48,395 nt of DNA from a virus (lineage: Duplodnaviria > Caudoviricetes): the IMG/VR virus record IMGVR_UViG_3300020045_018023, positions 1-48,395 of that record; one strand, written 5' to 3'. The notes under the pieces were generated by a model. That model was not told the origin of the DNA and did no database searches. It saw only the letters and a list, made by a program, of their open reading frames with translations. The position numbers and the translations under genes were made by a program. Of this stretch, positions 43,805 through 45,436 are shown piece by piece (the first letter of the stretch is position 1; each line of letters starts with the position of its first letter).

Positions 43805-45436
43805 CTATTGTATTGGTACTGAAAATGATTGAGCAGCTTGTGGTTGTTCAGCATATGTAACTATAGCTTCAGTTGTAAGCATAATTCCAGCAACGGAAGC
43901 TGCACCCTCAAGAGCTACACGCACAACTTTTGTTGGATCAACAATACCCATTTCGAGCATATCACCGTAAACACCATTTTGTGCATCATAGCCAAAGTTA
44001 TAATTAATTTTAATATCCTTAATATCTTCATCTATAAAAGTTATACCAGCATTGGAAGCTATTTGAAGAAAAGGAGAAGATAATGCATTTAGAACAATAG
44101 TAATCCCTTTTTTTACATCAAGATTAACTGAATTCAAATTATTTAAAATAGTCATACCTTTTACAAGAGCTGTTCCGCCACCAGGCAAAATACCTTCAGA
44201 CAAAGCTGCTTTTGTTGCATGTAAAGCATCATCAAATCTATCATATCTTTCTTTCATTTCCACATCAGTATTCCCACCAACTCTAATAACGGCTGTTCCA
44301 TTAAAGTTTCGGAGACGTTGAACAATGTGTGACCTATAATTGGGGTCAATATCATGTGAATTATCTAATTCTTTGAGTATTTTGAGCAGAGATTGCTTCT
44401 TTTCAGCAATTTTATATTCATTACCATGGCCACCAATGATAATTGTTTTATCATTGCTTACAATAACCTTATCAGCTGTGCCAAAGAGTTGTGGATTAAT
44501 ATGCTTATCAAGTCGCGTTCCTGCCGCGGAAGGTAAGAAATTAGCACCCGTTAAAAGTGCCATATCTGACATTAATTCGGTTCGGTATTTATCATAGGCA
44601 GGTGCTTTTACGGCACATGATGCATATACCTTATTACGTGTATTTGCGACAAGAAGTGATACAGCAGAACCTTTTACATCATTAGCAATTACAAGCATTG
44701 GTTTGCCCATTGAAAAGGCAAGCTTAAGTACTTCATCAATTTGAGCTGCTTGTGTAAGATCTTTTTCATAAAAGAAGATTAATGCATCATTAAATTCACA
44801 TGTATTTTTTTGAAAATTATTGATAAAATAAGGTTCAACATATCCACTATCAAAAGTAATACCTGTTACAATTTCAAGATCTGTTGTAAGTTTACGACCT
44901 TCTACAATAGATACCTGTCCTTCACGTCCCATAGCTTCATATGCATCTGTAATAAATTTTCCAATTTCAGAATCACTATTGGCTGAAATGGTCGCAATTT
45001 GCATAATTTCTTCGGATGTTTCAAGTGGTTTAGAATGTTTTTTAAGATCTTCAACAACAGCTGCTACAGCAAGATCTATACCACGCTTTAAATCCATAGG
45101 ATTAGCGCCTTCAGTTACAGCCTTCAATCCAGCTTTCATAATTGCTTGAGCTAGAACGGTTGAAGTAGTTGTTCCATCACCGGCAAGATCCATACTTTTT
45201 AAAGCAACTTGTTTAAGCAATTGAGCACCAACATTTTCAAATCGATCCGATAGAAATATTTCACGCGCAACTGACACGCCATCTTTAGTACTACGTGGAC
45301 CGCTATAAAGCTTATCCAATACAACATTTCTTCCCTTTGGTCCAAGTGTTACTTTTACTGCATTGGCAAGTTTATCTACACCAATCATCATTTTATCACG
45401 TGCTTCTGTTGAATAAAAAATGTCTTTTGCGCTCAT
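43805..45436 (-). CDS. groEL: Phage-encoded chaperonin GroEL (divergent, no GGM tail)
   Basis: [66 protein letters not shown]; full length 543 aa. Confidence 0.97.

Follow-up and report, generated by a model that had tools for sequence, protein, structure and literature searches.

The groEL locus and its relatives

The stretch of DNA analysed here, referred to throughout as the window, is a complete podophage genome of 48.4 kb, with direct terminal repeats and a GC content of 33.6%. Its virion genes include those for a terminase, a portal, and an HTVC023P-like capsid protein. A groEL gene encoding 543 aa occupies positions 43805–45436 on the minus strand, with a Rep-like gene on one side and, on the other, the gene that closes the virion block. 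This placement is common to the window, the close relatives G001 and G003, and L257. Directly 3′ of groEL is a putative terminator, picked out by consensus scan as a hairpin with a T run (43782–43800, minus strand).

The initial annotation had described the element as a small phage-plasmid. The gene content does not support this description: ParA is encoded at 12282–12932, yet the 44 ORFs scanned include neither ParB nor a member of a plasmid Rep family. The ParA protein had no blastp match in G001 or G003, and the Rep-like ORF gave weak matches to phage initiator PHROGs. Nor is a phage of small size an unusual carrier of such a gene, since 60-kb Flavobacterium elemo phages already carry groEL–groES.

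The capsid gene (MCP, 305 aa, HTVC023P-like) lies at 20759–21676 on the plus strand. It is followed, at 21689–25669, by four tandem paralogues of 306, 336, 336, and 336 aa, the last three of which are 69–76% identical; G001 and G003 have one best-matching copy each. At 48007–48395, an ORF with repeated CxxC zinc-ribbon-like units continues past the end of the circular record and has a homologue in G003.

The groEL product is a group I chaperonin (Cpn60/GroEL) with the three-domain fold. It matches Pfam Cpn60 at 1.7e-60 and the groEL PHROG at 1.3e-144, its PDB matches reach E 2e-143, and an AF2 monomer model (pLDDT 75) contains the expected elements. Aligned with E. coli GroEL, taken from RefSeq NC_000913.3, it has 248 identities across 535 aligned positions (46%). 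The alignment confirmed R452L (codon 44066–44068), together with A109E, E434L, E252N, E255K, and E257S, all of which had first been read by eye. The ATP motifs had correctly been called intact, with the D87 motif and D398 both kept, and the GGM tail is absent, as claimed. The missing tail is a weak sign, since the tail occurs in only 68/135 GroELs taken from genomes. Other changes are a 4-residue insertion within 352–376 and A92S, which resembles A92T, presumably an activating mutation of SR1.

Nine nucleotides upstream of groEL, on the same strand, is an ORF of 106 aa with an alpha/beta fold (45446–45766, minus strand), which is probably co-transcribed with groEL. Homologues lie upstream of groEL at L257:1662–2006, L127:8904–9215, L466:1182–1466, and, marginally, L096:3–242; in L257, there is a stop/start overlap between the small ORF and groEL. 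The protein was considered as a lid and rejected, as its predicted fold (alpha-alpha-beta3-alpha) contains no GroES barrel. Searches gave no Foldseek match at E≤0.001, a best VIA Z of 5.7, and no database homologue, and the Atlas was blank for this protein. It has a weak, non-significant likeness to a release-factor domain and to type III secretion chaperones. By analogy with T4 gene 39.2, one guess is that it might act as a GroEL modulator.

A search of 5.8 billion proteins returned ten relatives of the window GroEL at 53–73% identity, followed by bacterial GroELs at 49–51%. With further searches, the set grew to a single clade of 41 sequences (FastTree 0.997). Clade counts are based on the 34 proteins that were left after seven near-copies of P0011 had been removed, comprising 14 core, 7 extended, and 13 wide members. 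Three sets of GroELs served as controls: 217 top BLAST-type hits, which were chosen by likeness to the query and are mostly alpha-like, with few of them named; 135 GroELs from genomes, a planctomycete-heavy set used as a control only; and 133 other GroELs from viral contigs, which are redundant and some of which are probably host flanks. Classes of viral GroEL described as having no GroES are unreliable, as the underlying GroES profile also missed the window lid described below. Across these sets, A92S is present in 11/14 core proteins and 0/217 bacterial hits, and S or T occupies position 92 in 35/133 viral GroELs.

The viral scan covered 28/64 parts. No clade copy was present among the best 80 loci of a GTDB scan of bacterial genomes (best 39%), and a metagenome scan (35/64 parts) had one clade locus among its best 80. 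Two AT-rich records, G163 and G166 (L471–L474), are classed as proviruses, and ORF lists inspected by eye show integrase-like, ParA-like, and toxin–antitoxin-like ORFs near their groEL genes; these records may offer a lead to the host. A further record, L374/G002, is titled Paracoccaceae and is possibly mislabelled, as its three GroELs and their class neighbours look planctomycete.

Other unusual GroELs were encountered in the same searches. A separate viral group of 480–505 aa (L082–L084, L086–L093), found by a shared helix M motif, has most of 457–480 missing and has lost L234, R197, and E257; no GroES was detected by a search that also missed the window lid. Head-to-tail GroEL–GroEL fusions of 1071–1121 aa, unrelated to the clade, occur in several metagenome clusters (P0130, P0131/P0282, P0136/P0288, and P0147/P0289), with 3/3 members of P0130 having a length of 1078 aa. 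A covalent dimer of this kind cannot evenly tile a seven-membered ring.

Judging from sequence relationships, the window GroEL is probably host-derived, with an alphaproteobacterial donor. The alpha-like host origin proposed earlier is favoured by a tree from which 13 long-branch rows of 51 were dropped, where the clade (100/100) joins the alpha-like rows and is separated from other bacteria at 99/95. A tree that kept the long-branch rows did not resolve the position of the clade, and an AU test did not reject the alternative gamma/beta placement (p=0.137).

A candidate lid gene in the head module

A divergent GroES of the Cpn10 family, 180 aa long with an N-terminal extension of about 60 aa, is encoded at 17247–17789 on the plus strand. 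It belongs to the head module, where it precedes the capsid gene by three genes, and is 26 kb from groEL. The gene is readily overlooked: Pfam Cpn10 gave nothing above the cut-off in the window or in G001, and a custom GroES profile had no match near groEL. A reading of the chaperonin as GroES-independent was overturned by a weak GroES match in G003 (E 0.01), which led to 17247–17789. Of 50,697 phage records searched by tblastn, six matched this gene (E 4e-10 to 2e-5), and in 6/6 the match is annotated as GroES. The Atlas placed the protein with viral Cpn10 clusters (0.94; 220/256 features), and the top PDB match of its profile is GroES (residues 8–93, E 0.008), so that the homology extends over the entire Cpn10 barrel. 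Using thin alignments, hhalign returned a probability of 21% with E 0.001.

The next gene, at 17793–19145 on the plus strand, encodes a 450-aa protein that matched no family above the cut-off. It sits where virioplankton GroES contigs have a ‘kinesin-like’ ORF, a match of position only.

Starting from the G003 copy, lid homologues were recovered at E 7e-29 and 2e-43 among the genes of the window, G001, and G003, and weakly in G004, so that the lid gene is present in 3/3 clade genomes examined (the first three of these). In the reverse test, 6/10 records found via the lid gene also hold a GroEL, including 3/3 of those that are at least 90% complete, and the four records without GroEL are 25–57% complete. 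All six GroELs recovered in this way fall within the 41-sequence clade. As the window, G001, and G003 are syntenic throughout, however, co-inheritance alone is no proof of interaction. G004 (L450:9686–15204) is a related 49-kb phage in which a single operon contains groES, two ORFs, groEL, one ORF, and the capsid gene. Its GroEL, which falls outside the 41-member clade, keeps hydrophobic residues at 234 and 264 and lacks R452 and E461.

The mobile loops of the three clade lids (window, G001, and G003) have all lost the canonical K-T-x-G-G start. Of the Gly and three hydrophobic residues of the loop, the window lid keeps the Gly and two hydrophobics, the third being Arg, whereas G001 and G003 have a hydrophobic residue at the third position as well. 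No charge complementarity between the mobile loop and position 234 of the ring is consistent across the three pairs. Five cultured phages carry this same GroES in their head module; Cpn60 was found in 0/5, and their mobile loops are canonical.

Ring contacts and the apical domain

The initial annotation had drawn its case for a single ring from a gapless match to E. coli GroEL across 439–480, in which R452L is joined by E461T, S463I, and V464D. Such a match is arithmetically possible, as both proteins have 42 residues in this segment, but it is not the register of the formal alignments. E461T is recovered in one of three, where 463–465 are gapped, while the other two gap 461 and give S463T and V464F; S463I and V464D appear in 0/3. 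No register places an acid at 461 of the window GroEL. The segment 457–480 has 24 residues in both E. coli and window GroELs, 22 in 11/14 core members, and 25 in 215/217 alpha-like hits. These lengths indicate that helix Q has been shortened by about one turn in the clade, and that the window GroEL carries a separate insertion. Helix Q has three different lengths among the 14 core members.

Loss of the R452/acid-461 pair is not common in double-ring bacterial GroELs. The pair (R/K452 with D/E461) is present in 217/217 alpha-like hits and 117/135 genome GroELs, and in 0/34 clade proteins. It is also present in only 21/133 other viral-contig GroELs, and it is missing from 92/102 other viral GroELs that have a GroES within 3 kb. 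Because most GroELs in the viral sample lack the pair, its absence is weak as a marker and by itself neither proves a single ring nor sets this phage apart.

The second contact site had likewise been described as altered. This holds for A109E and E434L but was overstated, as K105 and D435 are both kept in the window GroEL. These residues form the second inter-ring salt bridge (available text of PMC5575113), and they are also kept in 13/14 core and 7/7 extended members. Position 434 is variable even among bacterial hits. Position 109, a two-fold position, is not small in 6/14 core members, where it is E, R, M, or N, compared with 2/135 genome GroELs. Position 452 is I, L, or M in 10/14 core members, and this hydrophobic residue could form a new ring-contact patch. 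Among the canonical double-ring features, then, the R452–E461 pair is lost, the helix Q segment is shortened in most of the core, and K105–D435 is present.

Conservation across the 14 core proteins is 72% at intra-ring strands, 28% at ring–ring sites, and 31% at helix H/I sites, and the same three sets give 62/46/65% in the genome GroEL control. No other set varies as much in the clade as the ring–ring positions; the whole equatorial domain is 66% conserved.

On sequence comparison, the distinguishing mark of the clade is its apical domain, and not the loss of the ring salt bridge. Compared with alpha GroEL, the window GroEL is 63% identical in the equatorial domain and 32% in the apical domain, while alpha and E. 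coli GroELs are 66% and 70% identical in the same domains. The apical changes in the window protein are L234D, V264A, T261L, E257S, R268N, R284Y, and R197S. Several of these sites have assigned roles: in the available text of PMC3514286, L234, L237, and V264 contact the GroES loop and N265 is needed for GroES binding, and in that of PMC3326522, R197–E386 and E255/E257 are allosteric bridges. Within the core, position 234 is hydrophobic in 1/14 and charged or polar in 11/14, Val264 is lost in 14/14 (a hydrophobic residue being present in 3/14), and position 257 is acidic in 1/14; R or K occurs at 197 in 1/34 clade proteins. In contrast, other GroES-paired viral GroELs keep L234, V264, R197, and E257 in 102, 101, 96, and 100 of 102 cases, respectively.

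These changes do not reflect decay, since ATP-site positions are 100% identical in the 21 core and extended proteins and N265 is kept in 14/14 core members. The D87 motif and D398 are kept in 34/34 clade proteins. The proposal that the chaperonin is dedicated to the phage is supported by features beyond those on which it was first based, namely the cryptic phage GroES and the remodelled apical domain.

A proposed private folding system and its alternatives

The reading preferred here, to which we assign a probability of roughly 45%, is that a phage lineage with GroES alone acquired GroEL from a host, after which ring and lid diverged together to give a private system, probably single-ring, whose predicted client is the MCP. 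On the ring state taken separately, the sequence leans somewhat towards a mainly single ring. An HTVC023P-like lineage with GroES only, using host GroEL, would have gained a host groEL gene; once freed from the host partner, the mobile loop of the lid and the apical helices H and I of the ring could have drifted together. Seven subunits would form one ring, to which the client and then ATP would bind before the phage lid capped it. In the absence of a second ring that could push the lid off, the lid would be let go through a weak ring–lid grip after hydrolysis, much as happens in engineered single-ring systems and mtHsp60. The cycle may be less concerted because R197 and E255/E257 are lost. 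The 305-residue capsid protein, a candidate client from gene order, would fit the cage, while the 884-residue portal likely would not.

Some precedent for this cycle exists. GroEL-SR fails because GroES is not released, and weaker ring–lid binding restores function (available text of PMC5575113); the loss of ring contacts and the altered lid contacts fit this weak-grip logic. In addition, an ancestral reconstruction with SR1-like changes is reported as single-ring (available text of PMC12696368), which backs the marker in one case. A stricter version holds that the chaperonin is lid-dependent, constitutively single-ring, and host-orthogonal: the captured GroEL and the older capsid-module GroES would each accept no other partner, and the small upstream protein might tune the system. 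This version is possible but doubtful.

The evidence against a single ring comes from chaperonins that form double rings with similar losses. In the available text of PMC7185714, phage EL still forms tetradecamers without helix Q, making 1:1 ring contacts and splitting only with ATP, and in that of PMC5575113, mtHsp60 has neither salt bridge and yet forms double-ring footballs. Together with the retention of K105–D435, these cases count against a single ring. The private GroEL–GroES pair might instead have two rings joined at a rebuilt interface, or cycle between 7-mer and 14-mer like EL and mtHsp60, which we regard as rather unlikely. Such an interface would suit the K105–D435 bridge of 20/21 core and extended proteins, the hydrophobic 452 of most core members, and the absence of the R452/acid-461 pair from most sampled viral GroELs. 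It is harder to reconcile with ring–ring positions that are less conserved than any other set, with three lengths of helix Q in 14 core proteins, and with the bulky or polar residues found at 109.

It is less likely again that the two phage proteins work apart, with GroEL resembling OBP gp246 or AR9 gp228, as an open ring that needs no lid to bind virion proteins and let them go, and the phage GroES capping host GroEL like T4 gp31. The residues at 234 and 264 of the core, the 26 kb between groEL and groES, the Gly and three hydrophobics kept in the lid loops of G001 and G003, and the lid independence of characterised phage chaperonins (available text of PMC9598537) all agree with this arrangement. 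However, the lid loop has diverged where the lineage owns a GroEL and is canonical in 5/5 GroEL-less phages, N265 is kept throughout the core, and G004 has groEL inside the groES–capsid operon. Highly improbable, lastly, is a phage subunit that joins host GroEL in mixed rings and abolishes host-GroES binding, so that these rings either serve phage clients or cease to work. Intra-ring strands are near bacterial (residues 36–41 identical to E. coli; 72% conserved in the core) and the contacts with lid and second ring have changed, as mixed rings would have it, but the same conservation is expected of a homo-heptamer. Moreover, the inter-subunit apical/intermediate salt bridges (R197, E255, and E257) are lost, and the ATP site is constrained throughout.

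The private, probably single-ring system preferred here has parts that are already known: single-ring phage chaperonins, which are distant and lid-independent, and phage groEL–groES operons, including those of 60-kb phages. Literature searches (including bioRxiv 2019.12.14.876532), with subscription journals mostly outside their coverage, found no publication about this lineage and no unlinked, co-diverged GroEL–GroES pair built on an HTVC023P-type lid. If the pair is truly orthogonal, it would be a tool to fold chosen proteins while leaving the host system untouched. If the host-orthogonal single-ring reading is true, some ‘GroEL-only’ phages would hide such a lid. Since the window lid escaped Pfam, phages of the ‘GroEL-only’ kind may have been overcounted.

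The GroES-only head modules of HTVC023P-type and virioplankton phages have the same GroES family as the window, the same gene order (GroES, three genes, capsid; HTVC023P, CRP-901), and a related capsid protein. The genes around the window GroES also match the virioplankton arrangement of GroES, ‘kinesin-like’ ORF, and head protein given in the available text of Marine et al. (2017, PMC5649160). Five cultured phages of the HTVC023P type have no GroEL and a canonical loop, whereas the window lineage has its own GroEL, a drifted loop, and a conserved N-terminal helix. In viral groEL–groES operons (the GroES>GroEL and GroEL>GroES clades of Marine et al., and the elemo phages), both parts are likewise phage-encoded and the ring salt bridge is often missing too. 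There, however, the genes are adjacent and L234, V264, R197, and E257 are kept, while the window carries the two genes unlinked and has lost all four residues.

Jumbo-phage chaperonins resemble the window GroEL in being phage-encoded, with a remodelled apical cleft and ring interface. OBP gp246 and AR9 gp228 are single-ring and lid-independent (available text of PMC9598537), and EL gp146 is a double ring split by ATP. These proteins are about 24–27% identical to the window GroEL (EL PDB match E 3e-31), whereas the window protein is 49–51% identical to bacterial GroEL and is not a member of their deep lineage (about 25% to GroEL). All three are reported as lid-independent, while the window has a candidate lid.

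Loss of R452–E461 is shared by the window GroEL with SR1, its functional single-ring derivatives, and human mtHsp60–mtHsp10. Function in the SR1 derivatives and mtHsp60 needs a weakened lid grip (available text of PMC5575113). SR1 is engineered and traps GroES, unlike the natural window GroEL. The mtHsp60 protein keeps its hydrophobic equivalents of 234, 237, and 264 and has neither salt bridge, whereas the window clade mostly keeps K105–D435. Debate over whether a lidded GroEL ring can cycle without a second one has so far drawn on engineered mutants and on mtHsp60, for which the ring state is itself in dispute (available text of PMC5575113). The window GroEL is close enough to bacterial GroEL for every change to be mapped, and it comes with a candidate lid, a candidate client, and 33 relatives, so that the question becomes one of simple purification.
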